Shown here: positions 1,165 through 45,500 of the stretch, one piece after another
Layout of the letters: each line of letters starts with the position of its first letter
How positions within the stretch are numbered: position 1 is the stretch's first letter
From: Nageia nagi
Lineage: Eukaryota > Plantae > Pinophyta
DNA: 64,000 nt
Assembly: GCA_050084985.1 (NCBI GenBank)
Contig: JBITNC010000001.1
Span: forward strand, 89,404,001 to 89,468,000
Direction of reading: 5' to 3'
The notes under the pieces: model-generated
Databases searched by the model: none
Seen by the model: the letters and a program-made list of their open reading frames with translations, nothing else
What the model was told of the DNA's origin: nothing
Position numbers and translations under genes: made by a program

Positions 1165-2897
1165 CCATTATTTTCAAGCATCATACATCATTACAATTCT
1201 TTATCATATCTATCATAAATTTTAAATACACAAATTCTAAATTAATAACTAAAAATTCTCCCTAGCTCCTTGAACAAGCCCCCAAAGACTCCTCTAATGA
1301 TGGAGGAAATGGAAATGGACGAAGTTTCTCCTACAGGCTCGAAGATTAATCAATGACAGAAGAATGAGGTTGAAGAAGATATCCAGGCTACATAAAAAGA
1401 GCAATGTCCTAAAATGGACACATTTGGTGAGGATCATCGCGGTCCTAACACATTGAAGACATTAATTTTGAAGATGAATGAGGTAGGCATTTCGAGGAAT
1501 GGGGTAGAATTGGGAGACAAAGAAAGGAATGGAGGGACATCAAAATGATCATAAGGGCAATGAAGGCATCCTAATACCCATGGTACAATAAGCATAGATT
1601 TGGACGGGCATGTGGGATGGTCACTCTCGCCTCTACGTAGAAGGAGGTACCTATGATGATCCCGATTCAGAATGTAGATGGATTGTCTTAGATAGAAATT
1701 GAGTTATTTTGGGAGTGTTTCAACAAAAAAGATTCCAATTTTGAGTTAGATTGGAACTCTATGGTTCAGCCAATGAAAGGATGGTGTGACCACCAAGCGG
1801 AAAGTAAGGATCTTTTCCCTAGTGTGTTTAGTAGCAACTACGATGACTCTTAGAAGACAATTTGTGGAACATACATAATACTGTTGAGCATCTATAAACT
1901 TTTATATATTCAAGACCCTATCTTTTTGAAAATTAGCTATAAATTTTTTACCCTTGTTGAAAAAAAACTAAAAAATCTTCCTTTTAATATTTTCTATCTT
2001 ATACTACTTTGTGGTTTACAATTATCTGTTATTCATTATCATTCATAATACTATTTTATATTTACATCTTATTACTTCATCAATTTTTACATAATACATA
2101 TACCTCAAACAATATTAAACTTCTTAAAAAATAAATTTAAACATCTACACTATGAAAATATCTTAGATTTCTAACATATATGAAAAATAAACTTAAATAA
2201 TAGAAGATAAATTGATAAAGTAGATAATTCGATGATAGAAAATGAATTAATAAAGTAATTTTTTAAACTAAAATAATTTATTATGAAGATAATTTGAGAG
2301 ATAATTGAAAGACAAAGAACTATAAAAAGTGTAAAGTTGAAAAAGAAAGACTAAATTTCTAACTTCCACAAATTAAATAATAAATTAAAATTGATGATAC
2401 AAATGTAACTCCACATAAATTTAATATAAGAAAACTCAGATAACTTTTAACAAAAGAAAACCTGAAACAGAAACTACTTTCCAAGTACCAATCTTTGGAA
2501 GTATCAAGTCCCAATGATGGACTACCATAATTTGTTTTTGCTAAATTTGCTGGACTAGTTAGGTCCTATATTTTTTTTTTGGTAAATTCAATTTCTATTG
2601 ATGTTGCAGTCTACAAAGAAAAAATTGAATTTCAAATATGTCCGAGGATATCTTTACACGGACATGAAGTTTCCTTTGGCGACACCACCTATTTCTCCGT
2701 TCAATTCTGGTAATTTGTCCTCCATGCACAAATGCCGTCCAAATCCACGCAATGCTCGCCCTTTTTCTTGATGAGCACGACCAATAAATGAAGCAAAATT
2801 TCTCCTTGTATCCATTTTCCCAGTAACAACAAATCCTTTCACAAATGCTACTCTTTTCTCCACAAATAGATTTCAGTACTGAAATCAGCAGCTTACA

Positions 2898-3563
2898 ATG
2901 GAGGAAGTACTGAAGAGGCCCCTGCTGCTGAAGATCGGGGCGCTTCTACTTCTTTCTATTGCATGCTTCTACCTCGGCAAGCGCTGGGCCACCTCATATG
3001 ACCAGGTTCTAATCATCAACGAAGCAGAGAGCAAGTCCTTCACCAGATCTCCAGCAGTAACCCTCGTCCTCAACGCCACTCGAACCCACGACCTCTCCGC
3101 TTTCAACATCACACTACCACCGCCTCCACCAGCTCAGCCACCACCACCACCGCCGTTTCCGCCACCGCCTCCGCCGCCTTCTTCACTTGGCGTGGTCGGC
3201 GCTGATGGGGCAATGCAGACGAATTTCAGGGTCGGTGCTGACGGGGACCAAGGTAATGATGACGTGGAAGTGGATGGAGCTGAGGTGGAGTCGGAGAATG
3301 GAACGAGCTTCGTGACGTGGAATGTGACTGGATCTGAAGATAAGTGGGAGCCCAATGTGAGGAAATTTGAGATGTGTGCTGCGAATATGAGTGAGTACAT
3401 TCCATGTATGGACAACTTGGAGGCGATCAGGAGGCTGAATAGTACGGAGAGAGGGGAGAGGTTTGAGAGGCATTGCCCTAATAAGGACAGAAGGCTGAGG
3501 TGCAGGATTCCCAAGCCACAGAAGTATAGGACTCCTATTCCGTGGCCTAAAAGCCGCGACGAG
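2898..3563 (+). CDS. PMT11: PMT exon 1 (TM anchor, poly-Pro stem, start of conserved domain)
   Basis: ATG 2898; ends ...[10 protein letters not shown]|GT at 3564. Confidence 0.93.
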
Positions 3564-21500: not shown

Positions 21501-24500
21501 CGAACTTGTGCTGACGTCATTGCTCATACTTGCCTGACATTGAGTGTATTTCATCGTGCCTTGGCCAAGTCTCTGATTAGTTGTCATCATCATCTTTCGT
21601 TCGACACTCAAGTGCCTTCACCGATGCTTCTTTTGCTTTACTGACACTTTTAAGGACTTATGTTGACGTCATAGTTCCTATTGCTTGACACTTAGCACTT
21701 CCCTTGTCATGCCACTTTTAAGGACTTATGCTGACCTCATAGAGGTCATGGAAGAGGTGACCATGGTAGAGAAAGAGGCCGCTCAGAAGGCCATAGCTAG
21801 AGCTTAGCCCCTTGACATTGTGACTTCTGTGGTAAAAACAATCACATAGAACAACAATGTTTCCAAAAGAAGAAGAAACAACCCAAAGCCAACTTCACTG
21901 AAGAATTCGGGGACTTCAAATTGTTTTTGACTCACAACAACTTCGAAGCAGTTGATGATTAGATATGGTACCTAGACAATGGTTGTTCGAATCACATGAC
22001 TAGTAACAAGAACGTGTTTGTACAACTTGAAGAAAATGGCTCTGAACAAGTCATGTTTGGTGACAACAATCAGGTTAGCATAGCCAACAAAGGATCTATT
22101 CTTTTAAAGCAAAGTCATGCACATGCATGATACATTGTATGTTCCGGGGCTGAAGCATAATCTTTTGACCATTGGTCAGATGTGCTTGAAGAACTACTCG
22201 ATAGTCTTAAAGAAGAAGAGTTGCACCATTATGAATGAGACCAATCGCAAAGTAGTTGCCATATTCTCATGTATGAGAATAGAATGTATATGCTCAAGAT
22301 GCAGCCAATGATAGTTAAATGTCTTAAAACAAGTATGGGATCAAGCGACAATATACAATTGCCTATACTCCTTAGTAGAATGGTGTTGCAGAAAGGAAGA
22401 ACTGGACGGTTGTTGAAATGGCCTTGTGCATGCTGAAGGAGATGGGCATGGACAACAAATTATGGGGGGAAGCTGTTCACATTGTTGTTTGCTGTTTACA
22501 TCTTGAATTGTTGCTCCACCAAGGTTATGTGGGATTCAACCCCCTACGAGGCTTGGTTTGGCAAGAAACCAAGTATCTCACGCCTTCGAATCTTTGGCCT
22601 ACCTGTTACCTTTACATTCCTAAGGAGATTAGAAAGAGTTTGTATGAAAAATCAATCAAATGTATCTTTGCGGGATACTCTAATGAGTCCAAAGCATAGA
22701 GGTGTTAAGATTCACTTGTTGGTAAGCTGCACATCAATAGTGATGTGATCTTCTTCGAGGAGTTTAGTCCAAGGGTTTTGATACTTTGACATCGTCCCTG
22801 AGTTCGAAGACTTCAGTTCCTCTGATCTAACAGAGCCCCATTAACCTTCCCACCCTCAACCCCCCAACACCTTGATAGCTCCTCCTCCTTCCAAGAAGAT
22901 GATTGCATGAGATCATCCACAATCTCAAATGTTGGATGATGATTTAACTAGGCATGTGACCCGACAACAATCAAGGGGGAGGATCATATCACCAACTATG
23001 CCTTGATGTCTTCTAACCTCATTGAACCTTCCAACTTCATAGAAGTGGCGACAAATAAAGATTGGAAAGCGACAATGGAAGACGAGATAGAGTAGATCCT
23101 CAAAACAAGAACATCATTAAAGCCAAGTGGATCTACAAGCTGAAGCACAATGTTGATGGCAACATTGCAAAACACAAAGCTCGGTTGATTGCTAAGGGCT
23201 ATGTCTAGAAAGAAGGCTTGAATTTGCACTTGTTGCTCGCATTGTGATGATCTGCTCTCTTCTTGCTTTAGCTTCCCATTTTTATCTTATAGTCTACCAA
23301 ATGGATGTCAAGTCAGCTTTCTTGAATGGATAAATAAGTAGAAGTGTATATGAATCGATCCCAAGGACTCACAATTGCCGGACATGAAGATAAAGTGTAC
23401 AAGTTGAAGAAAGCTCTTTATGGGTGTAAACAAGCACCACACACATGGTACTCTCGGATTGACACCTACTTCCATCAAAATGGTTATCATAGATGTTTAG
23501 TGGAAGCTACACTCTACATTGTTGTGCCTACACAACGCCCCCCAATTTTTTTTGCATTTTTGAGGACCCTCATACAATTGAAAAATGATAAAATTGCATG
23601 TTTTGTTGAAACAGGTCCCAAAAGTCACTTTTCCCCTTGGGCGCATGTTTTTGAGTGAGTGCTTTTACAATTTCGTGTTTTAAATGTGCATTTTCATGTC
23701 TAGTTCACTCCCCATTGTCAAAACATGGCATTCTCCTCATTGCATATCATCCTGGGATCATTTTGGTCATTTTTGAGAAGTTTTGGCAAGTTTTGGACTT
23801 GGGCACATGGATTTGGCATACTGAAAAATCACCCTCTTGAAAAGGTGCGAGCATTTTCAACACTTGGCATTTTTGTTTGGAAAAATAGCTTGAGCGCATG
23901 GTTTTTGGGGAGTGCAAAAGCACTCACCCAAAATGATGCACCTACCCTTCATGTGCATGAAAATTGGTTAAGTGCCAAAATTCTGGAACGTTCATTATGA
24001 GCTAAACAAGTGTTCCACCATGCATTGGGCCTTCATTTGCACCTGTTAGCATGTGACACCTGTCCATATGGGTGCATAGGCTATAAAAGGGGGGTCAACT
24101 TGATTATGTATGCATTTTGGTCAAATTGCTCCATCATGTGTTAAGTTTTGCGTGCATTGAAGGGAAGTACTACTTGAAATTGGTGCGCCTCATTCTAAAA
24201 GACATTTTTGAAGCATTTTTCTTGGAATTTCACTTTACTTGCGCCATTTAAGGCACCATGAAAGTTGTGCGCAGGTTTTTTCAAGAGGTGAAAAAGCACC
24301 CATCCATTTTGATGTGCTAGCCTCCTAGACGTCCAGATCTGGGACCAAGGTTTTTTGTCTAAGTGTGAAATTTTGCATCTTGGGCCTAGGTGCATTTTTT
24401 CCAAGGAGTGCAAAAACACATTGTTTTTGTTGCGCCTAGATTTTGGAAACATAATTCAAATGTAATTTCCTAGGTGTTGTGTTGACCCCAGGCGCAAGGA

Positions 24501-27500
24501 TTTGGGGGAGTGTAAAAGCACTCATTAAAAATGATGCACCCATGATCAAAAGGTCAGTTTAAAAGGGAAAATTGTCTAAGTTTCAAAACACCAAAAGAGA
24601 CCAAAGTGCATGAATTTTGAGGGGTGGAAAATGACTCACTCAAAAAGTTGCATCCCCCATTTCTGTTACATACATTGGACTTCATTTTTGACCAATCTGA
24701 AAGTGACATGTGGCAAGGTCCAAAATCTATAAATAGAAAGTCATCCCATGCATTTCATTACTCCATTTTCATTTTTTGAAGGCTCCCATGTCGCACCATT
24801 TCTAGGCATTAAGAAAGGACTACCCAAAAACAATGCACCCACGAGGAATAAGGGTTTTGAGGATAGTTGACATCATTTTAAGCCATTTTCTTTGGTAAGG
24901 AGAGGGTAAGCTCGATCAAGCAAAGCATTTTTAGAATATTACTTCATTTTTTTCCTGCATGCTTACCTAACTAACCTATGCACATGATTTCTGCATAGTT
25001 AAAAAGGATTCATCCAAAATGATGTGCCCAGGTCTAGAGTGAGAAAATTGACCAAGTATCAAAGTCTCAGGTGCATTCCATTCCCTTTTTGTTTTTCCTT
25101 CATGCATGGTAATTGATGAAAAATTAGGGCACAAGGTTTTTGTGTAGTGAAAAGGAATTCATGTAAATTGTTGCACCCTCATATGGAGTGATGATCTAGC
25201 AATTCAAAGCGAGAAATTTATTCAAGTAAGGATGAATGTTGACTGAAATGATGTGTTCCTCTAGCAAGTATCCAGGTGCATGGGTTTTTGGCAGTGAAAA
25301 AGCACTCTTCCAAATTGGTGCACCTCAGAGAAACTGATCTAAAATTTGACTAAGTGGTGAATAGCCAAGAGTGAAAATACAAAGTGAACAAGTGGCACCC
25401 ATGCAGTGCACCAAGCATTCACACTCCATGCAGCCTTTATAAAAGGGGATTTTCAATCCATTTTCTGTAGGATGTTTCAGCTGTCCTAGCCTGTACGTTT
25501 GGGCAATCCCTACTACCCCAGGACACATCCAAGATAGTGCACCCATCAAAATTTGACCTTCTTTCAGCCATTTTGCCATAATTTAGACCTATTCTCATTT
25601 ATTTTTTAAAATACACTTGTTGACTCAATATGAGTTCCAGGGCAAAGTCTACCCCATTTAAGTCCAAAAAGCTCTAGAACAGCTGCTTGAGAGGCATGTG
25701 ACAGAAGATCGGAAAGGCTTCTCAGAGAAAGCTAGATAGAATTCCAAGAAAGAGGGAAACCATAGCTCCTTGAATCCAAATTCAAAGGGAGTTTCACATT
25801 TTTCGGTGACATTGATTGGGGTAACATTGATCTTATTCAGACCATTGCATCCACCGCTGATATTAGCGAGAAAGATTTGCAAGATGAAATTATCCACTCC
25901 TGTGTGTTGTTTAATGCTACCATGATGCCATTTGCTATTGCTTTTCTTGATTTGTGTTACAAAGTGGCCAAGCATTGTAAACTAGACAAGAGAAATCTTT
26001 TGGATACCGAGGGAAATGTAATCATGGACTTCACTCTAGCAGGGATTGGAGCTTCTTTCGGGTGGAGAAGATATGAAGATGAATATACTGAAGCCTTATC
26101 TGTGGAGTTCCATGACAACACTACTAAGCTAGGAGACTACATAAGACATTGGTTGTATGATGATTATCAAGGCATTCAAGGCCAAAGATTAGTTAGTTCT
26201 TGTAGGGTAGAATTCATCCCCATGGTGTCTAAGTTGATTACTCTACTATCTCGGGTCACTGGACAAGAAAAGGATGGCAAGTACAAGGAGTTTATTGGCG
26301 TCATTTCCATGAGGGCTATACGATGGAGCAAAATAATAAGTGATGCTTTGTGCCACCAATTAGCTTATTTGGGTTCATCCAAAAAATTCTACATGAATTC
26401 ATACTTGGTGTATTTATTGTTATGTGGCAAATGCAGATCTAGATCACATGTAGATGAAAGGCAGTTGGAGAAGAAAGGCACCCCAGTGTGGAATGTCCAT
26501 CCCAAGTGGTAGTATCGCAACAAGTTTAGACACTATTACATGAGAAATAATGAGTGGGAATATGCTATATGATGAGTAAAATAATGGTATTCCAAATTCC
26601 ACTAGCGTTTTCACTACCCTTCCCCTAGTGATCCTTTCACCTGTTATCGTGAAGGGACCAGTTAGCTTGTAGAGCTAGTACTTAAACACTCAGGGCAGAT
26701 TTAGTTTCCTCTCACTAGTCTTGGAAGACAATATCTGACTCCTTCATTTAGTTAATCAATCTGGGCGGTGTTCAAGGCTATATGCTATTGAACTCTATTC
26801 TCTCAGCTGTATCTACTTCAAGTAAACATTGCAAAAAGCAAATATGCAGAAAGGAAAGTTGCAGAATTGAAAGTACAGGAATCTTAAATGTTGAAAGAAA
26901 TATACACTTGAAATCATCACACTGAATGTAAACTCACACCTGAATTAAAAGAACAGTAAAATAAAAGAGTTTTCTAGCATTTGGAGTGGGCCCTTGCTCC
27001 TCTTGGTGGAAGACTTAGAAGAACTCAGAACTAGAAACTCTTAACAGATCACTCTATTATTGCATACAATTTGTCTTGCACAGAATGTGCTTGACAAATC
27101 TAATACAAAGTCTTATTCTCAACAATCTACACACAATCCTTCCTTAATCTTCTAACCTCCCCTACCGTCAACAACTGAGGTATAAATATCCTCAATTGTT
27201 TAACAATAGGCTGGCCAAGAATAACAATAATCTGAACAATATTCTATTATAGAAAACAAAATCACTTATTCTACCAGCTAGTTAATGCTAAAATTAACAT
27301 GCTAACAGTGCCCACATCTTATCTAAGGAGAGCTGCAATCTCTTAAGAAAAGGGTGGCTCATCTCAACGAGTCAGCACTATCCTATTTACATCATAAGTA
27401 GTTTATTATGCCTAATTTGGAGTCAAACATACTCCATAAAACAAGAATCATATCTGACTATATCTAATGTGTTGGAGCCATGCTTCTACAGACTATAACT

Positions 27501-30500
27501 GGAGCAGCTCACATCATGTAAATATCTGGATCATACAAGGCTGGAATAGAGTTGGCAATATGGTCAATAATGAAGGTCAATTTCTCAAATTTGGGTCTGG
27601 AGCGGAAGCTTCGGACGAGTCTGAAATAGAAGCTTCGGACAAGTCTGAATTAGAAGCTTCGGACGAGTCTAAAATAGAAGCTCTAGACAATCTAACTCTG
27701 CTTTACCAAATGAGGCGTCCGCTTCGAACAATGTATACAAGTGCAAAATCTGTTTAGAATACTTCCTAACAATACTTGCAACTCATTCGAGTTATCAACC
27801 AACATTCTGTGGAGCAAAGAGAAGCATTTTGGTTCAAACAAACACACAAAATAGAATCAGTATGCACAAAATACTAATATAAGGAAAGTATGCATTTAAC
27901 CATATAATAAGCAACTAAATAGTTCAACAATTACAATTAATCCGTCCCATAATGGCCAAATATACAAAATGAACCATCAAATTGTGCCAAAAATCATGTA
28001 ATTACTGATACTCATCACTCCCCCCAGCTTAAGACATTGCTACTCCTAGAGCAACAAAGGAAAAAGACAGCCTCAATCAGAATCATTGGAACTGTCGACA
28101 ACAATAACAACTAGTGGAGCATGAACTAGATGAGCCAAATCATAAGGTCCGGCAGCGAGCTACAGTCTTTGTCGGGTTCGAATGTCAATTGTGCCCTCTT
28201 TAACCTGTGGAACACTTGCCCCCCCACCATGGTGTCAGATGAGTCGAGACTTCCATGTTTTGAATGCTGCATTTGGTTGGGCTCATTTTCAATCACGTTA
28301 GGAACTAGAAATAGAATCAATGGAGGACGAAATTGACTCCCCACCCAATTGTCAGGATCTGTTTCTAACAGAGTGATAAGAGAGAGCTCGTCGTCTGCTC
28401 CAATATAAATTACTAGGTGTAAAAACTTCACGTATATGGATTTCATAAGGAAAACCCATCCAGCGTGTGTTACAACACACCACAGCTTCATCAAACATGG
28501 CGTGAAGAGTTTCGCGACATTCTTGTTCACAATGTGATGTTGCCGCCTGATATTGTGCTCTAATAGGGCCTTGTAAAAGAAGTGTGTGCAATGCAGCCTA
28601 AAATCGTTGGGGAAAATATGCTTCAATCCTCATTGGAAAGATGTCACCCTCTTGACTGTTCTGAAATTGAGCTATTTCTTTCCTCCACTAAATATGATTT
28701 AACAGAGCAAAAATCCGTAGCTAGACTTCTCCCACATACAAATTTACAAAGAACCCCTGATCAGACGGAACAAAGAAACCATGAATAAAACACTCACACA
28801 TTAAGAAGTGTTGCTCATCCGAAGCAATAGAATATTCTTGAAGAAATTGTTGGGGAGTGTCTAAACGATAAAGTCGCCCTTTCTTAGTCTGTGACAATTG
28901 CCATCTGTAAAAGAGTTCTTTCAAATACACTGTGTAAACTGATAAAGGTGAGCGTAGTTGCAGAATTTCCTCAAAGATTGAGGAAACATCCTGGACAATT
29001 TGCCTTGGAACAGAAGAGTTTTGGGAGAGTGCAGCAACTCGGCTCTGAGATTCTTCATATTTATCTTGTAAATTCTGATGCTCTACCACCAACTGTTCAT
29101 GCATAATGTTGAAATCAGAAAACACATACTGTTCCTACACCACCTGATGTCTCAGCTCTTCAATTTCATCTCGCAATCTAGCAGTGGAAGCTTTCTCCTC
29201 TGTCAAAGCAGTCATCCAATCAAAATTCTGCTGAATTCTCTCCTTAAGGGCTAACTGTTTAGACGTTATGTGCTTGATCATTGCATGGAGTGTCTGAGTG
29301 CCCATTTGTCGTCGTCGTAATGTATCATTAGCTGCGACCAACTCTTTATTTTTTTTGTTCTGTCTCATCATGTTGGGCACGTAGAATCTGATTTTCGTGC
29401 TCTAGACGTTTGGTTTTTCCTTCTAGCTCTTGAACACGAGTTAATAACAGTCCATATGACACATCTGGAGTAATGGAGGAATTGGCAGTCTCAAAATTAG
29501 GTTGCAAACATGTAGAATCTTGCGGTGGTGTAGAACAAATTGACGTAGTCACAGGAATTGTGGAATCAATGCGTGGTCTCTTCCTAGAAGGTCTAGCGGA
29601 AGACTATGCATGTAGTTCACAGGTGGAAGGCTTAATTTGGATGTGAGCTGTTGGAACTACCTCTACCAGATTTATGCCAAATTTATGCCAAATGTAGGTA
29701 CTATATCCGGTTCAGCAGCCTCGTCCTTACCTTTTAAAAATGCTTGCCAGGCTTCTTCACCGCTAATGTGAAGAAAATACTCCCGACAAATCAAAGTGAT
29801 AAGTCCATGGTGTTTTAAGGGAGAAGTTTGGTTCGACTTGCGTCACTTAGCAGCCATGGATTGAATTCTGTCAAACAAATGCTAAGGAATATTATAGTTA
29901 TACTCACCTGGATATCGTAACTAAACCAATAGCTGCATTTGATGCCCTTGCAGTGTTGCATATTGGGCCTCATAGAAGAAATACTTTAGCACCCAGGTGG
30001 CAACCTCACTCCAGGGCTCGGGCAGAGACGTCCGGTTAATTCCTCGATCTCGTGGAAGGCGTCGAGAACATCATTAGGCGATTCTTTTCCAGATGTCAAC
30101 TCTTCACCTTCAACAGGAATACCAGAGATGGTGCTAATTATCTCAGGAGAGACTAGAATGGTGTGCCCTCGAAGAGTGACAAAGTTTTCTTTTAATTCGA
30201 TTGCAAACTGCTGCACCAACCAAAGCTCATAGCCCTGAAACTTGTCGAAAAATTGGAGCTACTGGGCGGTGGCAAATATTTCTGACACCTGGGGACAGCC
30301 AGTGGTCTGGAAGTTTTTGGCTGAATTTCAAGTGTGGCAAGGTGGCGAACAACACTTATGGCACATTTGTTACTTGGACATACAAATTCGAATAATTTAT
30401 AATAGTTAAACTACTAATTACCCAAGTAATGGTGAAATGACATACCATTTAATGGCGGATGGTGGTGGAGCGCGAAGATGGACTTTGGTATGTGTGGAGG

Positions 30501-33500
30501 TGATGAAGTGACATACTGATGATTGCGTACATGATATTTTGAAGCGTCGATCTCTTCCTATGAATCATATGTCACGTGAAAGACACTTGACATGTGTTAG
30601 GCATTGTGAAGGGAAAAGGTGGCACTGTCTTATTCATGGCATCGAAAAGTGTGACAACCAGCTCTTGAATCATGTGCCATGGAGTGGTGGGTGTGAACAT
30701 GTGGATATGTGGACGTACCTTATTTGCCAAGTTGTCACATGGTTTGGTTGTTATGTTGCGCTCCCAACGGGTGACGTTACGTTGTAATTGAAATCTCGTC
30801 TGGCGCATTGTACGAAGGTTGTGGCGTGGAAATTGATAGCTCTTGACAACATGTTCGGAGAAACGTCGTTCAAAGCTACAATCACAACACTTGTGCAAGA
30901 TTCATGCCAACTTTTGAAACTATAATAGTTCCTGCTGAAATGAGAATCCTGCACTTGACCTTATGTTATTATTATTATTATTATATATTTTTTTTACTAT
31001 ATATATAATAATTTTTTCTCCTTTTAAAAAAAAAAAAACTGACTAAAGCTCCTTGTGTTTTCAGTGTTGGTGGTTTTCACCCGGCAAGTGCCAGTTTCCT
31101 GGTTTTCACTTACTGACTACCACGTTCACTGGAATCATTTATTTATAAGATTGATCAATGGAATTAAACCATACCCAAGGAGGAAGAGGCTTCCCCAGAT
31201 ATATCAGGATCTGCTATCCTTATCTGTTGTGTGAATTGCTCCTTCGTTACTAGTATAGTATATGGGCGGAGGCGATGTCCATTAACCAGGAGAATCCTCT
31301 GAGAGTCGTTAATTGGTTGCAACTGGACCGAACCATTAGGGAATATTTGAAAAATCTTATATGGCCCCAACCATCGTGTCTGGAGCTTCCTTATGAAATC
31401 ATTATAGTTGGAATCAAATAATAAAGCCCATTCTCCTACCCAAAACTAGTTCTGTTTCAGATTTTTGTCATGCCATAGCTTTCGTTGATGTTGAATGATC
31501 TCAGTATTATGCAATGCCTCCATTCTTATTTCATCCAGCTCATTTAGCTGTAGTAGTCTATTTTTTTGTATTTCTTTTATGTCCATCCCAACCTCTAAAG
31601 TTGTTCTTAGTGTCTGGAGCTCAAATTCTATTGGCAATAAAGGCTTCTTACCAAATATTAACTCATATGGAGTAAACCTAGTGGTGGATTTCCACATAGT
31701 ATTGTATGCCCAGACTGCTTCAGGAAGCTTGGATACCCAATCCCTTCTGTGTGAAGCTACTGTCTTGGTCAATATATTTTCCAGCTCTTTGTTAGTAACT
31801 TCAACTTGTTTATTCGTCTGTGGATGATAAGGCAAAGCCTTCTTATGTCGGATCTGGTACTGGTTCACAAAAATGTTGAATTGTTTTTGACATGAACTGT
31901 TGACCTTGATCAGAAACCGAAAACCGAGGAGCTCCAAATCTTTGCATAATGTTATTATACAAGAAATCTACCACATATTCTTCCTTGGCATGTGCTAAGG
32001 CTACTACTTCTACCCACTTAGTGGCATAATCAGTACATACTAGTATGTGTTTCTTACCTTGAGATGGAGGAATAATAGGCCCGACAAAGTTGATGCCCCA
32101 TTGCTCAAATGGTTCAAGCATCCATTGTGGCTGTAATGGCATTTGAGTAGTAGCAGTAGGCCTACCCATTCGTTGACATTGATCACATTGCCTCACATAT
32201 TTTCTAATGTCTGTGTGCATAGAAGGCCAAAAATAACTAGCTCCTAGGACTTTATGGATGGCTTGTTTATTAGAATAATGACCTCCTGAAGGCCAATCAT
32301 GGCATGCACGGATGATTCAAATACTTCGTTTGTCCGAAGACATCTTCGGAGTGCATGATCAGGTCCATATTTGAACAGCAACCAATCCAACCACTTATAT
32401 GATGCAATTTGTCTAATTAATTGTTTCCTCTGATTTGGAGACAAATGTGGAGGAAGTTTCCCAGTGGCTAAATAATTGGCAATATCTGCAAACCAGGGAG
32501 ACTGTGCAGATATTGCAAAAAGTTGTTCATCTGGAAAGGTATCTTCCATCATCTCATCTTCCCGGACAATATTCAATCTGGATAAGAAATCTGCGACCAC
32601 ATTTGCCTTTCCAGGCTTATCAATGATAGTCACATTAAACTCTTGTAATAACAGCAACCATCTCACAACTCTTCCACTTACCACAGGTTTATTCATGAGA
32701 TATTTAATGGTAGCATTGCCAGTATGAACAAACACTTGGTATCCTATGATATAGTGTCTAAATTTATTGATGGCATACACTACTGCTAGGAATTCTTTCT
32801 CTGTAGTAGTATAATTTCTTTCAGCTCCCACCAAATTTTTACTTATGTAATAAATAGCATATGGGGCCTCGGTTCTTCTTGTCCTAGGATTGCTCCAATA
32901 GCATAATTTGAGGCATCCATATGAATGTGGAATGGTAGTTCCCAATTGGGACCTCTCAACATAGGAGTTGTGGTGAGTTTTTCCTTGATAGTCTGAAAAG
33001 CTTCTTCACAATCAGCTGTCCATTCAAATTCATTGTCCTTATGCAGCAGGGCAAATAATGAGGCTGCTGTTTTACTGAAATTTTCTATAAATCTTTTGTA
33101 GTATCCAACATGTCCCAAGAAGCTCCGGACATCTATTTGAGTCTCAGGTTGAGGGAATTGTTTGATGACTTCTATTTTCTTGGGATCCACCTGAATCCTG
33201 TGGGCTGAAATATGATGGCCCAAAACTATTCCCTCCTTTACAAGTATGAAGCATTTTTCATGGCTTAAGGATAGATTATGCATTTTACATCTCACCAAGA
33301 CTTTTTCTAAGTTCTTCAATGCATCTCCAAAAGTGTTGCCATACATCGTGAAGTCATCCATGTACACTTCAACGCAATCATTAGTCAAATTTGAAAAGAT
33401 TGCTAGTACAACTCTTTGGAAAGTTGCTGGTGCATTGCACAAGCCAAATGGAAGAACTTTATAAGCATATGTACCCCATGTACAAGTAAACGTGGTCTTG

Positions 33501-36500
33501 CCCTGATCTTCCTCTGCAATTTGTATTTGGTTATAGCCACTAAATCCATCTAGGAAGGAGAAATATTGCTTACCAGACAAAGTGTCTAACACTTGGTCAA
33601 TGAAAGGTAATGGGAAGTGGTCCTTGAATGTAGCTTTATTGAGAGCTTTGTAGTCAACACATACCCTCCATTTGCCATTTTTCTTAGGCACAATCACCAA
33701 TGGTGAGACCCATTGACTATCTAAGATAGGATAGATGAATTTAGCTTTCAATAGCTTTTCAATTTCAATCTTAACAACTTCTTTAAGTGCAAGATTTACC
33801 TGTCTAGGAGGTTGCTGGACTGGTTTGGTTTCATCCGTATATATATGATGGGTACAAATCTTTGGATGAATACCTTTCATGTCTGAATATTCCAGGCGAA
33901 AGCCTCAGTATGGGTTGTCAAGATATCAAAAAGCTTCTTCTCTTGTTCATCTGTCAACCAACTGCTGATATTAAGAGTCTTTCCTGGTAATACTTCAACA
34001 GTCTTGATCCCAGGTTTGGTCAGATTACTTTGTTTTGGAAGCTGAACCAGGGAATTCAAAGGACAAGAGTGTGGAAATAAAGAATGGAATACTCTTGTTC
34101 TTTCCTTGAAAGTATCCCCTTTTGGAATAATGTGAGTAAGGGGGCATTTGAACATTGCCAAAAATGTTGCCTGATTTTCTGATGGAACATTGAAAATAAT
34201 GTTTAGTAGTGGGTTAACCACTGTATTTCCCTTCTCTTCATCACTGCCCTCTGATTCTTCTTCCTGTGGTTTCGGATAGTGGTACTGTATTTGTTTCAAA
34301 CTAGGATATTCTTTTATCTCTTCAACATGGTTCTTGATGGTAATGGTTGCTAATGTTGCAAAAGTCTCATGTGCATCCGTGTCAAGCTCATCAACCTATA
34401 TTTGGTTGTGATATTCCAACGTTGGTTGGGAAGGTGGGTACAAAGAAAGTGTCTTTGTGTTTAGGCCATTAGAAATGGTCATATCTCCAGACCTACAGTT
34501 GATGTATGCAGTTGCAGTGGCTAACCAAGGTCTTCCTAGTATGACTGAATATCCAGATGGTTGTGCTCTTGTCTTTAGAAACAAAAAATCTACTGGATAG
34601 CTCTAGGAATCTACTGTTAGTTGGACATCTTCCACGATTCCGTCTGGCTTGGCCACTATTCGGTCTGCCATTTGCAACATAGTTGAAGTGGGTTGTATAT
34701 TTGACAGGAATTGCTTTTGAGACATATCCAGAGTCGTGACATTTATTGCTGCTCCCAAGTCAACCAAAACATTGGGCACTTTAGTGACTCCTATGAAAAT
34801 GGTAATAACAGGATTACCTGGATCGCCATACTTAGGAATTACCAAATTTTCGGCCTAAAGATCAGCTACTTTACCATCTACTTTAATAGTCTTTGGATAG
34901 ACCTTTCTTCTTCCTCCCTTTTGGATGCATAGTTCTTTAACCAGCTTGTTTAGCTCAGAAACTTGTTTGATTGCTTGTAATACAGGTATCGAGATATTCA
35001 ATTTCCTTATCTCTTGCAGCAGTTCTGATTCAGTTTCTTGGGGTTTTTCAATCAGTCTTTTTGGATATGGAGTAACTTTTGTTTGGAGCTCCTTGTTGTT
35101 TGCAGGTAGAATTGTTTTTGTTGGTGGCTTTTGATTGTCTTCTGTGTGTTCTCCTGGAGATTCATTTGAGCTGTCCACCTTTACTTCTATGATGACAGGA
35201 GGTACAGGATCTGGCCATTTCTTACCAGATCGAAGTTCAATTTCATTGCATTGGATAACATTTACTGATGCAGTCTCCTTGATCAATTTGATAGGTAGGA
35301 GCTGGAGCTTGCCTGTTATTATTTGGGTTAGGAACAGGTTGGGCTGGAAGAGTAGGTTGCTTTGGAGGTTGTTGCTGTTGATTCATTTGCTGTTGTTGGT
35401 TAAATGGTGGTGGTAGCAAACCTTGCCTTCACTGTCCTTGTACTAGATGATTACTCCAGTTTTGCTGATTTTGTCCTCCATATTGTTGCCATTGTGGATT
35501 CCATTGTGAAGGATCTCATCCATAACCTTCCTAATCTTGAGTTACCATCCATGGGGATATGGTAGCATGCTCCACCAATTTTGATTCGTTGGTCTAGAAA
35601 AATAGCGATTTGGATTCCCTTGGAAATTACTATTTCCCCTAGGTCCCATTGCTCCCATATAGTTCATGTTCATGTTTGGAGCTGCTATAGACATTTGTGC
35701 TATCGTTAGATAGTCACAATCATTTGTTGGATGGTCATTATTGCATAGGTTGCATATATGGGTAGTGTTCAGAGGACATTCATGTAGAGCATGTTTCTTT
35801 CGGCACCTAGGAGAGTATCTTGTTGAAAACTCATTTGTGGTCTCCTTTTTCGAATTCGTAGTTTGAAGAGAATCCTGGACCTCATTCAGTTTATTTGCTG
35901 TTCCCTTCAATTGACTTAATTCAAACAAAACATTAGTCTTGAAGTTTGCAAATTCCTCTTTAATTTCACTTGCCAATCCAGTCTCTACCCAACCATCATT
36001 TTGAAACCTGTCACTTCTCTTATGTGTTCTGGTTCTTGAATAGTTTCTGTAGAGTTCCACAATTTCATCAAGAGTTAACCTATTGACATTACCCTTTCCC
36101 ATCAGATTGAGGACTTCTAATGTGGAATCCAGAAGCCCTCTTAAAAAGATAGTTTTGGAGAATTCGAGATCCATGGTTGTGTCAACTCTTTTATGAACAA
36201 ATAAGAATCTGTCAAGGTAATTTTCAAGGCTTTCTGATGCTGCATGACTGAGTTGAAATAGTTCATCTTTCCTATCTTTGACTCGATAGTATTCTTGGTA
36301 TTTTTCTAGAAAAGCTTTCTCCATTTCATCCCAAGTGGAGATGGAATCTGGAGGAAGTCCCATGAACCACCTCATTGCATTGTCCTTTAGAGTGGATGGA
36401 AAAAGTTTAATTTTTGTTCATCCATCTCATAGTCATAAGTTCTGCACAGTATCTTGAATTCAAATAGAAACTGATCTGGATCCTTATTGGAAAGACCTCG

Positions 36501-39500
36501 AAAGCTAGGTAAGATTGACGGTGAAATGTTCTTCATAGGAGCTTGAGTCCTTATGGCGAGCCTTATGGAATAAGTGAATGTTTGAGTAGAGGGATTAGTA
36601 CCTCCCACTCCAAAACCACCACTTCCTCTAGACATATTGACAAATGGATTAGTATATATCTTCTTTATTTGCTCAAACTCTCGTAATCTCCCCTTGCTGT
36701 AATAAATATGGAAGGGTATCTTGGCTTCTTCTTTTTCTGCTTCATAATCAATTCAACTGGAAAGAGGATGAATATGAATAACGGGTAATAGTAAAGATGT
36801 ATTGGAGAAATGGATGGATGGATGAAGAGTAGTAGTGATTGTATCTGGAGCAGGCTCAACTGTCTCTGTTTGGAGAGTTAAGTTTGCAAACCAAATTGGA
36901 AATGGAGGGGATTTATCAGTAAATCTTTTATATTGCTTAGGTGGATATGAGAATCTCAGAAATGGTGGTGATGATGGACTAATGAAAATTGTCTCTTCTG
37001 CAACGACTGGGTGCTCATTTTGGAGTATGGTTTGCCTCCTCTTCCAAAATTGTTGGATCAATTTCTTTCAATTCTTCCACAGGTCTAGGCTTTGGCCTAG
37101 TTTCTTCTGGTTGCTCCACTTGATGTTCTTCAACAACTATACTGCTTCCCTTTTCTTCCACAACCTTTTTTGAAATCAACTTTTTAGTTTTGGGGGATTT
37201 TTGTTGTGTTTTTTGGACTGATTTTCCTACAGCTACTTTCTTACTACCGTCTTCTTTACTACTGACAAATCTTCTTTTATCATCTCTTGATCTATTCATA
37301 CATTCTCCAGCAAATAAGCACACAAATCTATCACAACTTAGACAACAATTCGCTGCAATTTCTTAATATAGGTTATTGGGGCCACTCATTTTGTGAAGAA
37401 TTGAGGAACCAAGATGGCACCTGATTTCAAATTGGCTCTGTCAAGTCCTCTATCCTTAAGAAGTGCAGGGATAGTTCAATTAACATCGTTCCCTGACAAC
37501 GGTGCCAAAAATGATGAGTAAAATAATGGTATTCCAAATTCCTCCAGGGCTGTCACTACCCTTCCCCTAGTGATCCTTTCACCTGTTATCGTGAAGGGAT
37601 TAGTTAGCTCGTAGAGCTGGTACTCCAACACTCAGGGCAGATTTAGTTTCCTCTCACTAGTCTTGGAAGACAATATTTGACTCCTTCATTTAGTTAATCA
37701 ATCCGGGTGGTGTTCAAGGCTATATGTTATTGAACTCTATTCTCTCAACTGTATCTATTTCAAGTAAACATTGCAGAAAGCAAATATGCAGAATGGAAAG
37801 TTGCAGAATTGAAAGTATAGGAATTTTAAATGCTGAAAGAAATATATACTTGAAATCATCACATTGAATGTAAACTCACACCTGAATTAAAAGAACAGTA
37901 AAATAAAAGTCTTCTACCATTTGGAGTGGGCCTTTGCTCCTCTTGGTGGAAGACTTAGAAGAACTCAGAACTAGAAACTCTTAACAGATCACTTTATTAT
38001 TGCATACAATTTGTCTTGCACAGAATGTGCTTGACAAATCTAATACAAAGTTTTATTCTCAACAGTCTACACACAATACGTCCTTAATCTTCTAACCCCC
38101 CCTACCGTCAAGAACTGAGGTATAAATATCCTCAGTTGTTTAACAATAAGCTGGCTAAGAATAACAATAATCTGAACAATATTCTGTTATAGAAAACATA
38201 ATCACTTATTCAACCAGCTAGCTAATGCTAAAATTAACATGCTAACAGTGCCCACGTCTTATCTAAGGAGAGTTGCAATCCCTTAAGAAAAGGGTGGCTC
38301 ATCTCAACGAGTCAGCACTATCCTATTTACATCATAAGTAGTTTATTATGTCTAATTTGGAGTCAAACATACTCCATAAAACAAGAATCATATCTGACTA
38401 CATCTAATGTGTTGGAGCCATGCTTCTACAGACTATATCTGGAGCAGCTCACATCACGTAAATATCTGGATCATACAAGGCTGGAATAGAGCTGGCAATA
38501 TAGGCAATATAGTCAATAATGAAGGTCAATTTCTTAAATTTGGGTCTGGAGTGGAAGCTCCGGATGAGTCTGAAGTAGAAGCTTCGGACAAGTCTGAAAT
38601 AGAAGCTCTGGACAAGTCTGGAATAGAAGCTCCAGACAATATAACTCTGCTTTATCAAATGAGGCGTCCAATGTGTCCGAGCTCTAGACAATGTATACAA
38701 GTGCAGAATTTGTTCAGAATACTTCTTAACAATACTTGCAACTCATCCAAGTTATCAACCATCATTCCGTAGAGCAAAGAGAAGCATTTTGGTTCAAACA
38801 AACGCACAAAATAGATCAGTATGCACAAAATACTAATATAAGGAGGGTATACATTTAACCATATATTAAGCAACTAAATAGTAAAACAGTTACAATTAAT
38901 CTGTCCCATAATGTCCGAATATACAAAATGAACCATCAAATTGTGCCAAAAACTAGGTAATTACTGAGACTCATCACTATATACAATGAAATCAAGGGAG
39001 AGTTTGCAGTCAAAAGGATTTCTGATGCAACCATCCAAGCTTGGGTACACAGATTTGTACCTACAGTACATTGATCACACGTACATAAGAGTTTATGGCT
39101 CTAAAGAGCAAACTCTTCTTTTACGTAGATAATGCTAGCGATCGACTAGTCCTCATGGAATTTGCCAGGCAATTGTTATTCTTGAAGGGAAAGGTTTGGA
39201 GAAAGAAGGATGCAACGATTAACCTGCCCATCACTATTTCAGGTTACATTTTTCAGACTTGGGTTGAGGCCAAAAGTATGGGAAAGGAGTTGCTACAATA
39301 TGTTTTCTATAAGGAGAAAAAGCTAGATTTTTTGATCCTAGAGGTGTTATAGCCAATTTCTATAACACTGCCTTCCCAAAGCTTATTGCATTTAAATACA
39401 GATCTTTGGGGAATGTAGAGAGATATAGGAACTTGAGAGATAAAAAGAAGATTAAGGATATTGATGCTCTTTTGAGCAAAAACAAGGCTCCTCTCAAGCT

Positions 39501-42500
39501 TGGAAGCAAAATTGCTCAACCTGCACCTCAAGGGGCCAGAAATGTAATAGAAAGACCTACAGAGGTCTCACTTAGGATTAGGATGTCCCCTTCTGCTAGC
39601 AATGCATCTCTTCTGGGTGAGAAGTCTTCCTTGCTTCCTCTTGGGAAAAGACAAGGAACCATTGGTCGACATGCTTCGATGGGTTCCAACAAACACAAGG
39701 CAAAGGCTAATGCAATAAAGATAAGTTAGCAGGTGGTTGCTCTCAGGGAAACTGGCTATGTGAATGTCTCTTTGAGCATATTAGAACAAGCTGTTGTCTA
39801 CCCCAAGGGTAGTTGTGCCAATAATTCCCCTATTAGAAGATCCAATGACACTCCACAAAGATCCTTACATCTTCAAGGGTACAAAGAGAAGGTTCTCCCA
39901 CTAAAACCTAGTACGAGTTCTTCCAGTTGCTCTTCTTCCTTAGATGGAGAAGATCTTGAAGAGTTAGGCTCCTGTGATGAAGAAGGCTCCCATGATGAAG
40001 AGAGCCAAGGTAGGAGGGTTGTAACAAGGGAGATGATGGAGAGGAGAGCTATGAAGATGATGATGATGCTGAATCCAATCCACAAGAGGATGAATTATAC
40101 CTTGCACAAGAAGAGAATGTAGTTGTAGGTGCTTCTGCACCTGATGATACAAAGAATGATACTCTCTCAGATGATGATTTGTTTGTTGATGTATAAAAGA
40201 TTGATGAAAATGTCCAAATTGTTGGAGTAAAGCGCCAAAGAGATGAGCACATCCAGAACTCCTCCTGCAGACCATCGAAAAAAATCACCCTCATCTTCCC
40301 AGAAGACCTCGTCTAAGAGGACCAACCATGAGAGATCTCCTCAACCCCGCATAAAAGTTCTATCATTAGGAGGAGGTGGTAGAGATGAAGAGGATGAAGG
40401 TGATACAAAAGAACAAAAGAAGAGGAAGCAGGATGAACCAAGGCAAAGAAGTTGCCATCATACAAACTACTCCCACAAAAGAAGTCGACAAGAAGTTGAG
40501 CCAAAGTAGAATGCTAGTGTAAAGGCTCCCTCCTAAACCAGCTACTGAACACCTAGAGCTTGACTTGGACGCTTGCTTGAGAGTTTTAAGCATGAGTACG
40601 ACTCATGATGAGGATATTGATCCAGACTTGATGTCCAAGGACAAAGAGGAAGAGCTCTCCGATGGTGAGAAAGTGCAAAGAGTGGATACCTATGTTTGCA
40701 CAGACAGATAGATTTCTGTTAGTCATCGCTACTCCAAGAAGAAGCACCCAAAAAGACTTGAATATTGTTTGATGGAAACTTTAAGATTCCTGCTAAGCTA
40801 GGGTTATCATCAAGGAAGCACATTGTTACCCAAAATGCAGCAATGATGGAGCAAGAGGGCGATGAGGCCAAACAAGAGGTAAGAAGGTTAAAGAAGGAGC
40901 TCACTGCCAATAGGAAAATGATCAAAGAATTTCAGGTTGTGAGTATGACCCCTGTTGAGCTCAAAAGACAAGCTTCATTCCATGTAGGTTGGAAGTTGAT
41001 GAAAGAGTCCTTGAAGAAGGAGACGATGGAGACCATTGAGAGGCTATCTTTTCAAATTTATGGGCTTATCAAGGAAGGAGCTGAGATGAGAGAGTTGAAG
41101 ACTCAAATATCTTCTCTCCTCGAGAAGCTAGATGTACATCTCCCTATTGTTATCAATCTTCAGAGGATGTTTGCTGATAGACTTGAGAAGCATGCCTTGG
41201 ACAAATGCCAAGCGATGCTTAAAGCCAGGGTGCCCCTAAAAAAGGACGTAGAAGAATAGATGGCCCAATACATGTATCAGTTGAAATATCAAGGGGAGAA
41301 TGGTGATGTACGCAAAAAGGATTCAATCTTGGCAAAGGTGCAAAATCTAATCAAAGAGCATCTTGAGATGGAAGACCTCAATCTTTTAAAGGCAAGCAAG
41401 CCCATTCATCATGAGAGGTAGATGGCCATCTGGAGATTTCAGATGCAAGCTACATCTCGACAGATAAGAGGGATATAGAGAAAATGGCAACATCGCAGGC
41501 ATGCTCTCTAGAGGAGTACGGAAGACCTTAGCTTTCTTGGAGGAAGCTATGGGATAATGCAGTCTCACCGACAAAAGCGTGGAACTCCGCAGATGTTGAA
41601 TCAAATTTGCCCTGGATTTGATCCGTTTGCAGATTCTGTTTGCAACTATCTTTTCAGTGTTAAATGCATTTATTGTTCTCAGTTTCATATACTTGATTTG
41701 ATTGGTGCAAGGATTGTTTTTTGCTCCCACTGGTTCAAATGTCAGACTTATTTTCATATCTGATCTTATTTTGCATAGATTAGAGGTTTTGTGGCTGCGA
41801 CATTTATGTTTTGTCAAGTTTTTAAATGCCACTTGCATAGATAAGTGTGATGTGATCTAATTTTGCATAGATATGTGTATTGCATGTGAGCATACCATAT
41901 ATGATTTTATGCATATAGGGCAACATTGCATTTATTGCAACTACTTTTGTGACCTATATATATCCCACTTCGGTCATTTAGAAGGGGATTTTCGCTATTG
42001 AAAGAAAGGAATGCTCCTATTATGTTTTTGAAAATGTTTTGTAAAGTGGATTTCATTTTGGAATAGTGCTTTAAAGAATGTTATGAGTCTTTCATTTGTG
42101 GGATCATGCATGTTATCTTGTAAGAATTTCTTGCCAATTTGAATAGTTTTTTTTGCTTAAGTGCATTCTCTTTGAAAACTAAGGGTTTTAAGAGGAGATA
42201 GTTGAATATTTTGTGAAGTGGTTTGAATTATTCATTGCATGATTCGCAAATAAGTGTATGTATTCTGAGGCAAAAAGTTTATCTCTATATCATTCAGCTA
42301 GAATATGTATTCACGTGTGGTCCTTTCCCTTCATTTTCATTTCCATTGAGTCTTCCATTATAGACCCAACATCTCCTTGCTCTTGTCTAGTAGCAACTTG
42401 AGTTTTGCTATTTGCTGCTAGGCTTGATAAGTGAATATAGATTTCTTAAGGAATCCGGGAATGACCTGTCGAGACATTGCATCATTGGTGATTGCTTCAT

Positions 42501-45500
42501 GTGCTATTTTCTCATTCCTATGCATTTATCCTCACATTTGTGATCTTTCTTCACTTTTGTGATCTTTCTTCGCTTTTAAGCTCATACCTCATGATATAAG
42601 TCAATCATTGAGTCTTGATTGTATACGGTTGAACAATATGCATCTCTAACCATTGTGCATGGGTTCATATTCCATGTGAGTTGCTTTGGGTATAAAGTCC
42701 TTTCAGGCGGACACAAGTAACATTGTCTCCTTCAACTTGAGTGGATGTTTTGGAAGGAAAGAAAAACATACCAACATACACCAAAGTCTCCGAACATGAT
42801 TATATCTTCATTTGATTGTATGTTGATGATATTATCTTCATGAGCACTTCCGCTTCCATGCTGCAACAATTTAAGACTACAATGGTAATCAAGTTTGAGA
42901 TAAGTGATCTGGGTGACATACAGTACTTTTTTGGACATGCAAGTTCAACAGTCATCCAACAACATCTTCATCACTCGAATTAAAATTTTTGATGATATGC
43001 TTGCCAGATTCTTAATGAAAGATTGCAAACTTGTTGGTACCCCTACAATTGTATGTTGTAAATTGATGAAGGAGCATTCTACTCATTTGGCTAATGCAAC
43101 CTTGTACATGTCACTTGGAGGTAGTCTGATGTATCTCAAGGAAGAGGAAGAGGAAGAGGAAGAGATGACAAACAAAACAAACGATGTTACTCTTGTAACA
43201 AGTTTGGTCTCTATGAGAGGGATTGTAGATTGAAGGCTTCTTAAGAAGGGAAAAATAGTGCACATTATGGAGAAGAGGATAGATCTTAAAATATTTTTTT
43301 GACTTATGGCAAGGCTGATCAGAATTTGCAAGAGACATGGATACTTGGTATGGGCTGCTCCAACGACATGTCTGGCAAGAGAGAGTTCTTTGCTACCATG
43401 GAAAACTCATACAAGTCCAAGATCAGGCTTGGAGATGACAAGGCCTTGCATGTTGAATGCACTGTAGCCATGGAGGTGCACACCAAAGAAGGTAAAAATA
43501 AAGTAAATGACATTTATCACACTCCAAATTTAAAATACAATTTGTTGACTCTTGGTCAAATAATGGAAAAGAAATATAAGCTTGTTTTTGAAGATGTCAA
43601 GTGTGTAATATTTGATAAGAATAATAGTCATAGGTTGGTCACAACAGTCCTTATGACAAAGAATAGATTATTTCCATTAAAATATGGAGGACAAGGGGTT
43701 GGTCTTGCAAATATTGCTATAGAAAACAAAAATTGGTTGTGGCACCTTAGATATTGTCATTTAAACTTCACAAGTTTGAGATTATCAATAGCTAAAGAAA
43801 TGGTATATGGGATACCGAAGGTTGAAGATCACAAAGGAGTTTGTGAAGGTTGTGTTTTGGGAAAGCACTCAAGATCAAGTTGTCCAAGAGGAAGGAGAGC
43901 TACTTCTCCACTACAATTGGTGCATTCTGACATAAGTGGGCTAATGCAAACACAAAGTTTGGGTAAAAATTACTACTTTCTCACTTTTATAGATGATTTC
44001 TCAATAATGTGGTGGTTCTATTTGTTAAAGACCAAAGATGAAGCTTTTGAATGCTTTAAGGATTTTGAAAATCATGTTAAGAACCAAAGTGGATATTTTG
44101 TAAAATGCTTAAGCATTGATAGAGGAGGGGAATTTTGCTCAAATGAATTCCTTCATTTTTGTAAAGATTGTGGAATCAAAAAGGCAACTCACTATTGCCT
44201 ACACTCCACAACATAATGGTGTGGCTGAGCACAAGAATAGAACCATTGCTGAAATGGCTAGAAGCATGCTTCAAACTAAAAAATTGACAAATATCTATTG
44301 AGCGATGCGGTTAGGACAACAGTCTATATTTTGAATAAGAGTCCTATTAGCAAGCATATTGACATTCGCCATCATTTTATGAGAGATTTGGTGAAAGATG
44401 GATTCATTGAATTCAAGTTTTGTCCTTCTGAAGACCAGTTAGCAAACATCTTCACCAAAGCATTACCAAATGATCGATTCCTCAGTCCTTGAAATTGTAT
44501 TGGAATTCAACCCATTCACATTAAGGTGAGAATGAGGGAATTTAATGTTCCATAGTTTGAATTCCATTTTGTTCCATTTTGGACACACCTCTCGTGCACG
44601 TACATCTCCTCCAACGGTTAGTACATGTCGGATTGATTCTTCACCTATCGACATTTATTTCCTTCGCAGATGTGTAGTTGAGCTCTTAATACTCACAATT
44701 TGATCAAATCAATCTTGGATGCACAAACATGGATGCCCATCCCTTTCTGATAGATTTCATTTATGTTTTTCCTAATTCTCTAAGCAGACTGAGTTGTAAC
44801 ATCTCTTGGAGTCTCAGACATTCGATTTTCTTTTTTCTATAAATAGGGACTTCATTTCCCATTGTAAGTAAGTAGGAGAATATTGTAATGTTATGCTGCC
44901 TTTTTGAACACTCATAATAGAAAACATTTTGTTTGCTCTGCAACTCTCTGTTTTCATTTTCTTCGTGTTGTTGAGCGATTGTGTATGACTCAAGCTATTG
45001 GTGCAGGCATCTTGAAGTTGATTTGAGGTATTTCTTATCGCTAAGTCCGTGTTTTAGCTACTTAGTATTGATCAAATTCTCATTTTGTGTTTCTGATTGT
45101 GAGATATCGTGGTTTGTTCTTTTGTTGCCCTGTCTTGGGTCTTAGACAAGTCTGAATGCTTAAGTCTTCGGCTTAGCTCTTTAGCCTCGTGATTTTCTTT
45201 ACTGGAATCACGTCCAAACCAGATCTCCCTCTTTGCAATTGTTTGAATTTGTTTTTTAGACCCTTTCTACATTACTGAACCTCCATCTTCAAGACAAAAC
45301 CATGTTTCAGGCTTCTCGAGAGCTTTCCTTGCTTGCTAGATGTATTTTTGGTGCGTTGCTGTGTTGTGCCATGTTTGCTGTGCCTTACAAAGCCTTTTTG
45401 TGCTGTGTTCTAATTTTTGTTGATGTCATCTCTCTTACCGCCCGACACTTAAGTGTTTTTCGTGCCTTACCGGTCCCTGATCAAACTCGTGCTGATGTCA

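Follow-up and report, generated by a model that had tools for sequence, protein, structure and literature searches.

Oppositely oriented cores in arrays of 50-bp dyad sites upstream of an open reading frame for a predicted VANC-like protein within giant LTR-like units of Nageia nagi

Why should nearly all sites of a long array face one way in one copy of an element and the opposite way in another? The question is raised by a 64,000-nucleotide stretch of the Nageia nagi genome (GenBank assembly GCA_050084985.1, contig JBITNC010000001.1, positions 89,404,001 to 89,468,000 of the forward strand; here the window, numbered from 1), in which two giant units resembling long terminal repeats (LTRs) each carry an array of 50-bp dyad sites upstream of a long open reading frame (ORF). 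An earlier note, made from the letters of this stretch alone, had described a concerted change of the site centers from AAAA to TTTT between the two copies and had likened the arrangement to the VANDAL elements of Arabidopsis. On balance, we favor the view that the dyads are candidate binding sites of the protein encoded downstream, which would have a VANC/PMD-type fold and would counter host silencing at three promoter modules, and that the unit is likely a giant solo LTR. The units, sites, and TATA-like boxes concerned are as follows.

23520..42776, + strand: copy 1 (A-type) giant LTR-like unit, TGTTG...CAACA, collinear with copy 2
23640..23689, + strand: copy 1 unit 1, reduced to the left arm and a T core by deletion of the right half
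23802..23942, + strand: copy 1 module 1 units 23802 and 23893, A core
24082..24088, + strand: copy 1 TATA-like box 1 (box 2 begins at 24728 and box 3 at 25438; aligned with the copy 2 boxes)
24269..24654, + strand: copy 1 module 2 units 24269 (irregular spacing), 24389, 24491, and 24605, A core
24790..25324, + strand: copy 1 module 3 units 24790, 24979, 25128, and 25275, A-rich core
49974..56685, + strand: copy 2 (T-type) giant LTR-like unit, 6712 bp, TGTTG...CAACA
50154..50699, + strand: copy 2 unit 1 (50154) and module 1 units 50365, 50460, 50558, and 50650, T core
50819..50825, + strand: copy 2 TATA-like box 1 (box 2 begins at 51209 and box 3 at 51645)
50873..50915, + strand: degenerate A-core site in a T-type element, also present in the relative L008
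50984..51535, + strand: copy 2 module 2 units 50984 and 51089 and module 3 units 51245, 51381, and 51486, T-rich core (TCAA at 51486)

The sites form a recognizable class. Ten units of near-fixed geometry had been claimed for each copy; the units lie where they were reported, and copy 2 does have ten (plus the degenerate A-core half-site at ~50873 to 50915), but copy 1 has 11 candidates (nine full-length and in register, one irregularly spaced [24269], and one shortened with a T core [23640]), and the triplets are often imperfect, all four being perfect in 1 of 11 copy 1 units and 4 of 10 copy 2 units. Two exemplary strings are present as quoted, GAGTGC-AAAA-GCACTC at 23910 (unit 23893) and GGGTGC-TTTT-GCACCC at 50667 (unit 50650). 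In 35 units from four elements, conservation within the half-site falls on G1, GCA at 4 to 6, TT at 11 and 12, G18, G20, and TGC at 21 to 23. With up to three mismatches the dyad pattern matches 15 times in the window, against 0.04 expected, and 14 of these matches fall within the two arrays. A symmetrized matrix, trained on the 10 copy 2 units only and thresholded at the best of 300 dinucleotide shuffles, places 8 sites above threshold in the first 2.2 kb of copy 1, and no site elsewhere in the window, outside the units of both arrays, scores >2.3. Between 12 and 34 of the 50 positions pair in each listed unit, so the units are palindromic as a consensus and not singly. In each copy 10 or 11 units are packed within 1.8 kb of the noncoding part upstream of the ORF and grouped in three modules, each terminated by a TATA-like box whose distance from the module's last unit is kept; these boxes may serve as promoters.

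The core is where the copies part. Its letters are 34 A and 0 T of 36 in the nine full units of copy 1 and 36 T and 2 A of 40 in copy 2, where only the last unit reads TCAA, much as the earlier note had stated. A scan of metagenomes for the dyad pattern returned at least 116 stretches; among the 115 loci read, two were relatives of the element (L008 and L053), and the rest had no similarity to it. L008 is 83% like copy 2, with 30 T of 32 core letters; L053, on a rearranged contig, is ~70% like copy 1, with 31 A of 32. The scan pattern required a core of four A or T letters for the matched units (one in L008 and two in L053), the remaining units being located with the symmetrized matrix. L053 also folds back on itself (1-650 and 2791-2670; the inverted stretch is identical) and carries a further LTR-like insertion; it is probably an amplification or assembly chimera. 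The pattern search found no array in viral contigs, and the GTDB scan gave one chance match only. Core direction is uniform within each of the four elements and opposite between the subfamilies, and core type tracks subfamily in that its state is fixed per subfamily. Under independent 50:50 flips, seven or eight concerted opposite positions would have a P value near 1e-4 or less.

Several lines of evidence indicate that the cores were turned in place. In the seven aligned pairs, 2 of 28 core bases match directly and 23 of 28 when reversed, whereas the outer arms match at 139 of 210 positions directly and 119 of 210 reversed; the core alone has therefore been turned round. With the central six bases removed, units at the same position are 0.623 identical versus 0.584 in shuffled pairings (P = 0.005; a modest effect). 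This likeness of the arms holds at the six nontandem positions (P = 0.006) and is gone after reverse-complementing (P = 0.84). The best match by outer arms finds the positional partner in only two of the seven pairs (24491/50984 and 24790/51245), and both pairs bear unit-specific marks on either side of a switched core; units 24491 and 50984 also have an 18-mer in common (at 24484 and 50977), which upholds the reported same-orientation switch. Inversion of whole units or of the array, already dismissed for the array in the earlier note, is ruled out by the collinear arrays and the direct orientation of the arm likeness. A general A-versus-T strand bias is likewise ruled out, as fourfold sites and T/A runs outside the units lean toward T in both copies. 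Recent tandem re-amplification of a single variant, which had been named as a finding that would undo the original proposal, accounts for the four T units at 50365 to 50650 and not for the others. The sole T core of copy 1 sits in the half-deleted unit 23640, whose counterpart in L053 has an A core, and a degenerate site with an A core persists beyond the first TATA box in both T-type elements (copy 2 and L008). Broken sites thus escape the core rule, as expected if the rule reflects selection.

What the switch means follows from the symmetry of the sites. TGC-AAAA-GCA on the opposite strand is TGC-TTTT-GCA, one duplex in two orientations. A symmetric dimer could therefore not distinguish the two cores, and the diverged binding specificity of a dimeric protein, suggested earlier, is not supported by the switch; what changed is the direction of the core with respect to the arms, the neighboring units, and the TATA boxes. 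There is a second, symmetric difference at positions 2 and 49, with T in 2 of 18 half-sites of copy 1 versus 13 of 20 of copy 2 and in 1 of 16 versus 13 of 16 half-sites of their relatives. It could reflect a real change of specificity, but much of its signal comes from the tandem module.

The gene downstream of the arrays lies between the TG and CA ends of the same unit:

25630..26569, + strand: first part of the copy 1 ORF, interrupted by stops and frameshifts; its N-terminal domain is predicted to be VANC/PMD-like
38979..41520, + strand: copy 1 ORF, second part, with the rest of the N-terminal domain, a low-complexity linker, and the C-terminal heptad-rich region
51787..55245, + strand: copy 2 ORF, ~1150 codons, broken by stops, with a frameshifted middle

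The copy 2 protein has an N-terminal globular domain of ~430 residues, an acidic/serine linker, and a C-terminal heptad-rich region. Codon comparison in seven blocks indicates purifying selection, with pooled figures that include block C3, which is probably out of frame (ratio of nonsynonymous to synonymous substitution [dN/dS] of 1.2 at 35% identity); the dyad sites are kept between lineages whose synonymous sites are saturated. The N-terminal domain is predicted to match the fold of VANC21, and the C-terminal region is predicted to form a coiled coil. A first structure prediction, from three sequences, had a predicted local distance difference test (pLDDT) score of 31, and neither Foldseek on PDB and viral models nor PDB sequence searches gave a match for the ORF product. 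The nearest neighbors in a protein language model are Transposase_32 and ATHILA (similarity, 0.90), and PF10536, PF20167, PF03078, and PF04195 were absent from 135 family members and 18 longer homologues. Word-based protein searches found one relative of near length, none longer, and 13 short ones. The HMMER library search reached ~20% identity and returned 229 clusters at 50% identity; among the best 150 of these, 10 were looked up and none was informatively named. The family (P0028, P0060, P0146, and others) is large and unnamed, with conserved W...I...I..QL, FYM.SYLVY, and P..LP.Y motifs, and viral contigs held neither it nor the array.

We propose the following mechanism. The promoter cassette in the unit would make a VANC/PMD-type DNA-binding protein, and an oligomer joined by the coiled coil may read the two 23-bp arms through the GCA/TGC marks and T tracts, with the A/T core giving each site a direction. 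Template switching across the short inverted arms may turn a single core round in one event; PMC10710096 describes such one-event inversion of a hairpin loop. Selection favoring sites that face the same way, of the kind reported for VANC21 motifs, would then have fixed the working sites oppositely in the two lineages, while broken sites kept or took an odd core state. Direction might serve polar loading toward the TATA box or the assembly of an asymmetric complex, and the bound protein would keep the promoter modules active against silencing. Several points weigh on the other side: no CG/CHG protection is seen in these dead copies, the sites are unlike those of VANC in length, and there are only two subfamilies.

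The carrier has LTR-type ends. Copies 1 and 2 are homologous over their entire length and collinear, copy 1 measuring ~6845 bp once a nested gypsy element is excluded, and each is bracketed by a 5-bp target duplication with one mismatch (TACAT [23515-19]/TACAC [42777-81] for copy 1; CTTCC [49969-73]/CCTCC [56686-90] for copy 2). On the first 2.1 kb of copy 2, 2102, 941, 598, and 390 contigs stack in four runs from four studies. Family boundaries fall exactly at 49974 and 56685 in all four runs, with diverse flanks beyond; the empty site of copy 2, left flank joined to right, is represented at 56689 by 5 contigs in one run and 4 in another; and the 5' start of L008 is the same base as that of copy 2. 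Fixed ends in multiple runs, diverse flanks, and an empty site identify the unit as a mobile, multicopy insertion with LTR-type ends. The 5' terminus (23520-23537; 49974-49991) is an 18-bp near-perfect palindrome (8-bp arms and a 2-bp center in copy 2 and L008) that resembles the inner TGC...GCA of the dyad units. The other end is conserved as well:

55246..56685, + strand: T-rich 3' part of copy 2 (AT skew, -0.25), with a terminus common to copy 1 and abundant in four runs; likely the 3' untranslated or R-U5 region

As to what the sites do, the main competitor is that they serve host transcription factors as enhancers within the U3 region of a long LTR and that the ORF, an accessory gene, has a different function. 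Units at conserved distances upstream of TATA-like boxes would suit this, and repeated host-factor sites are common in LTR promoters; yet a four-part dyad of 50 bp is long for known plant factors, a fixed host factor leaves the opposite core polarity of two subfamilies in one genome unexplained, and the neighboring gene has a predicted DNA-binding fold, so that we regard it as unlikely. Less likely still, in our estimation, is the case in which the sites are functional but the core unselected, conversion among units or tandem re-amplification having spread one core per lineage. Four copy 2 units do form a ~95-bp tandem array (72% matches), the only tandem module; units of one element resemble each other about as closely as orthologues do (0.58 to 0.63 versus 0.62, core excluded); and contig joints in the runs skip or repeat about one unit spacing. 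However, the positional identity of the arms at the nontandem positions and the marks flanking the switch in the two pairs named above require conversion to have copied the central few bases alone. We consider very improbable a role of the units as hairpins or cruciforms, whether in DNA or in the transcript, with an A or U loop that counts for the RNA or for replication. As single-stranded DNA the best units reach folding energies of -14 to -16 kcal/mol, and strand-specific roles would give loop direction a meaning, but many fold weakly (-2 to -7), an Rfam search had no match, and own-arm pairs number 239 versus 240.2 when permuted (P = 0.60). This lack of covariation speaks against the hairpin or cruciform role that the earlier note had left room for, and symmetry at the level of the consensus without covariation is the pattern of protein-binding sites, as proposed here.

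Whether the carrier is a solo LTR is a separate question, and the answer is probably yes: it has short inverted TG...CA ends, a 5-bp duplication, a dispersed family with fixed ends, and no gag-pol. A Pfam scan found no gag-pol families in the open frames of copy 2, the gag, reverse transcriptase, and RNase H matches in copy 1 belonging to the nested element, and no transposase family among the frames of the giant unit. A parent element with two repeats was sought; the short contigs show no dominant continuation past either end (sequence agreement beyond the 3' end is only 0.42 to 0.48), and the viral contigs contain none. The unit could instead be a stand-alone gene cassette that is inserted by a retroelement integrase in trans and has no gag-pol parent, an option we rate as doubtful. 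All three readable 5' flanks (copies 1 and 2 and L008) are mutually unrelated, the loose ends past both termini are diverse in 4 of 4 runs (agreement, 0.42 to 0.53), and 6.7 to 6.85 kb exceeds the 6.5-kb maximum given for Ogre LTRs (1.9 to 6.5 kb) in PMC6431247; a plant survey (PMC6317226) has LTRs reaching about 5 kb. Nevertheless, TG...CA, 5-bp inverted termini, the 5-bp duplication, 5' TATA boxes, and a T-rich 3' part are LTR anatomy, an internal primer site or purine tract enabling solo replication was not identified in the unit, and contigs break at such junctions anyway when repeats are high copy.

The VANDAL parallel drawn in the earlier note survives in part. VANDALs are Mutator-like DNA transposons with VANC proteins, whose sequence-specific anti-silencing is established (Hosaka et al. 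2017, PMC5735166). As in VANDAL/VANC (PDB 9LNK), an element-encoded protein of the same predicted fold, with a coiled coil, adjoins a dense, co-oriented motif array in noncoding DNA whose state is subfamily specific and which has some tandem-repeat growth; if the prediction is right, the analogy is much more than resemblance. In contrast, the carrier is LTR-like and not Mutator-like, with a 5-bp duplication and frames free of transposase; the sites are 50-bp dyads and not 8- to 9-bp asymmetric words; most units changed in place, without tandem turnover; it was direction that flipped, and no new word arose; and the ORF product has no sequence-level match to VANC, which PMC13547354 describes as dicot specific. 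Ogre/Tat/Athila elements carry extra ORFs (PMD-CC, Transposase_28, Transposase_32, and ATHILA ORF-1) internally, on the 5' side of gag or the 3' side of pol (PMC4408406, PMC6317226, and PMC7264820), with a function described as unknown in the last of these. They share with our ORF a conserved accessory frame with a globular domain and coiled coil, a Ty3/gypsy-type setting, and the Transposase_32 and ATHILA language-model neighbors, but the ORF here sits between the TG and CA ends, accompanied by promoter modules and candidate sites of its own, and has no Pfam match. One survey lists gymnosperm Tat lineage II without an extra ORF, which an LTR-borne ORF might explain. The host PMD proteins MAIN, MAIL1, and MAIL2, which act at M1M/M2M promoter motifs, one of them palindromic (bioRxiv 10.1101/2024.09.27.615353), are alike in having a VANC-related fold at promoter-proximal motifs that keeps genes active and differ, comparing by description, in being host genes with single short motifs and Polycomb antagonism. 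Giant Ty3/gypsy solo LTRs agree in termini, target duplication, and size class; they differ in that here a ~1150-codon ORF lies within the repeat and the parent element is not seen. Among retroviral LTR genes, mouse mammary tumor virus sag and foamy-virus Tas, the latter with its own LTR sites, are similar in tying a regulator gene to an LTR promoter.

Both giant units appear to lie within very long, element-filled introns, sense to a host methyltransferase gene spanning 2883 to beyond 62502. Its exon pieces (+ strand) are at 2883-3614 and 8257-8691 (both PF03141, S-adenosylmethionine-dependent methyltransferase) and at 19121, 61322, and 62502, which from their motifs we take to be the same gene. 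Copy 1 is inserted in a copia reverse transcriptase gene, presumed such from a family motif, with copia reverse transcriptase on both sides. A repeat pair at 20474-21713 and 44537-45692 is ~81% alike; the repeat has a TATA box, begins with 42-bp repeats, and ends with short ones. The pair is probably the LTRs bracketing the copia pieces hit by copy 1. A later insertion splits the copy 1 ORF:

26570..38976, - strand: nested full Ty3/gypsy element, 12.4 kb, with ~1.45-kb LTRs and target duplication CTATA

Its LTRs differ at 89 of 1442 sites (6.2%), and copy 1 is therefore old. A primer-site motif suggests that the nested element is Athila-like, as does a weak match to Transposase_32 (E = 0.13) in a decayed extra ORF of its own, which follows integrase in the same sense as pol (~30900-28130, - strand). 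In a profile comparison this ORF showed no significant similarity to the giant-unit ORF (probability, 0.3%). Both nested LTRs contain three or four copies of a 24-bp tandem repeat (27605-27682 and 38554-38639), which in the right LTR falls within a 124-codon open frame. A hAT-type transposase fragment (DUF659) lies at 12856-13218 (- strand).

The openly accessible literature covered yielded no description of this element, of the array, or of an LTR-encoded VANC-like protein. What appears to be new is the combination of a site array and a predicted VANC-like fold within an LTR-like unit, which on present evidence may work like a VANDAL. A predicted VANC-like fold adjoining an orientation-locked array in two subfamilies of opposite polarity names the protein, the site, and the control, making the idea directly testable. 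Surveys that seek extra ORFs only in the internal region would miss genes of this kind, carried in the LTR itself. We suggest, tentatively and as a generalization that may well prove wrong, that plant LTR retrotransposons have sequence-specific, VANC-type anti-silencing of their own: the LTR would be a self-contained cassette (promoters, polar 50-bp operators, a VANC-fold gene, and a 3' end), through which any copy or solo LTR could sustain the activity of the whole family, with subfamilies separating their circuits by in-place operator flips. If this is true, (i) a function would be supplied for the enigmatic PMD/Transposase_32/ATHILA extra ORFs, (ii) concerted cis evolution could proceed by the flipping of dispersed sites where they stand, a mode different from tandem turnover, (iii) a 50-bp target would be far more specific than VANC 9-mers for epigenome tools, and (iv) VANC-like systems would extend far beyond eudicots and would help to explain how LTR elements multiply in very large, heavily methylated plant genomes.

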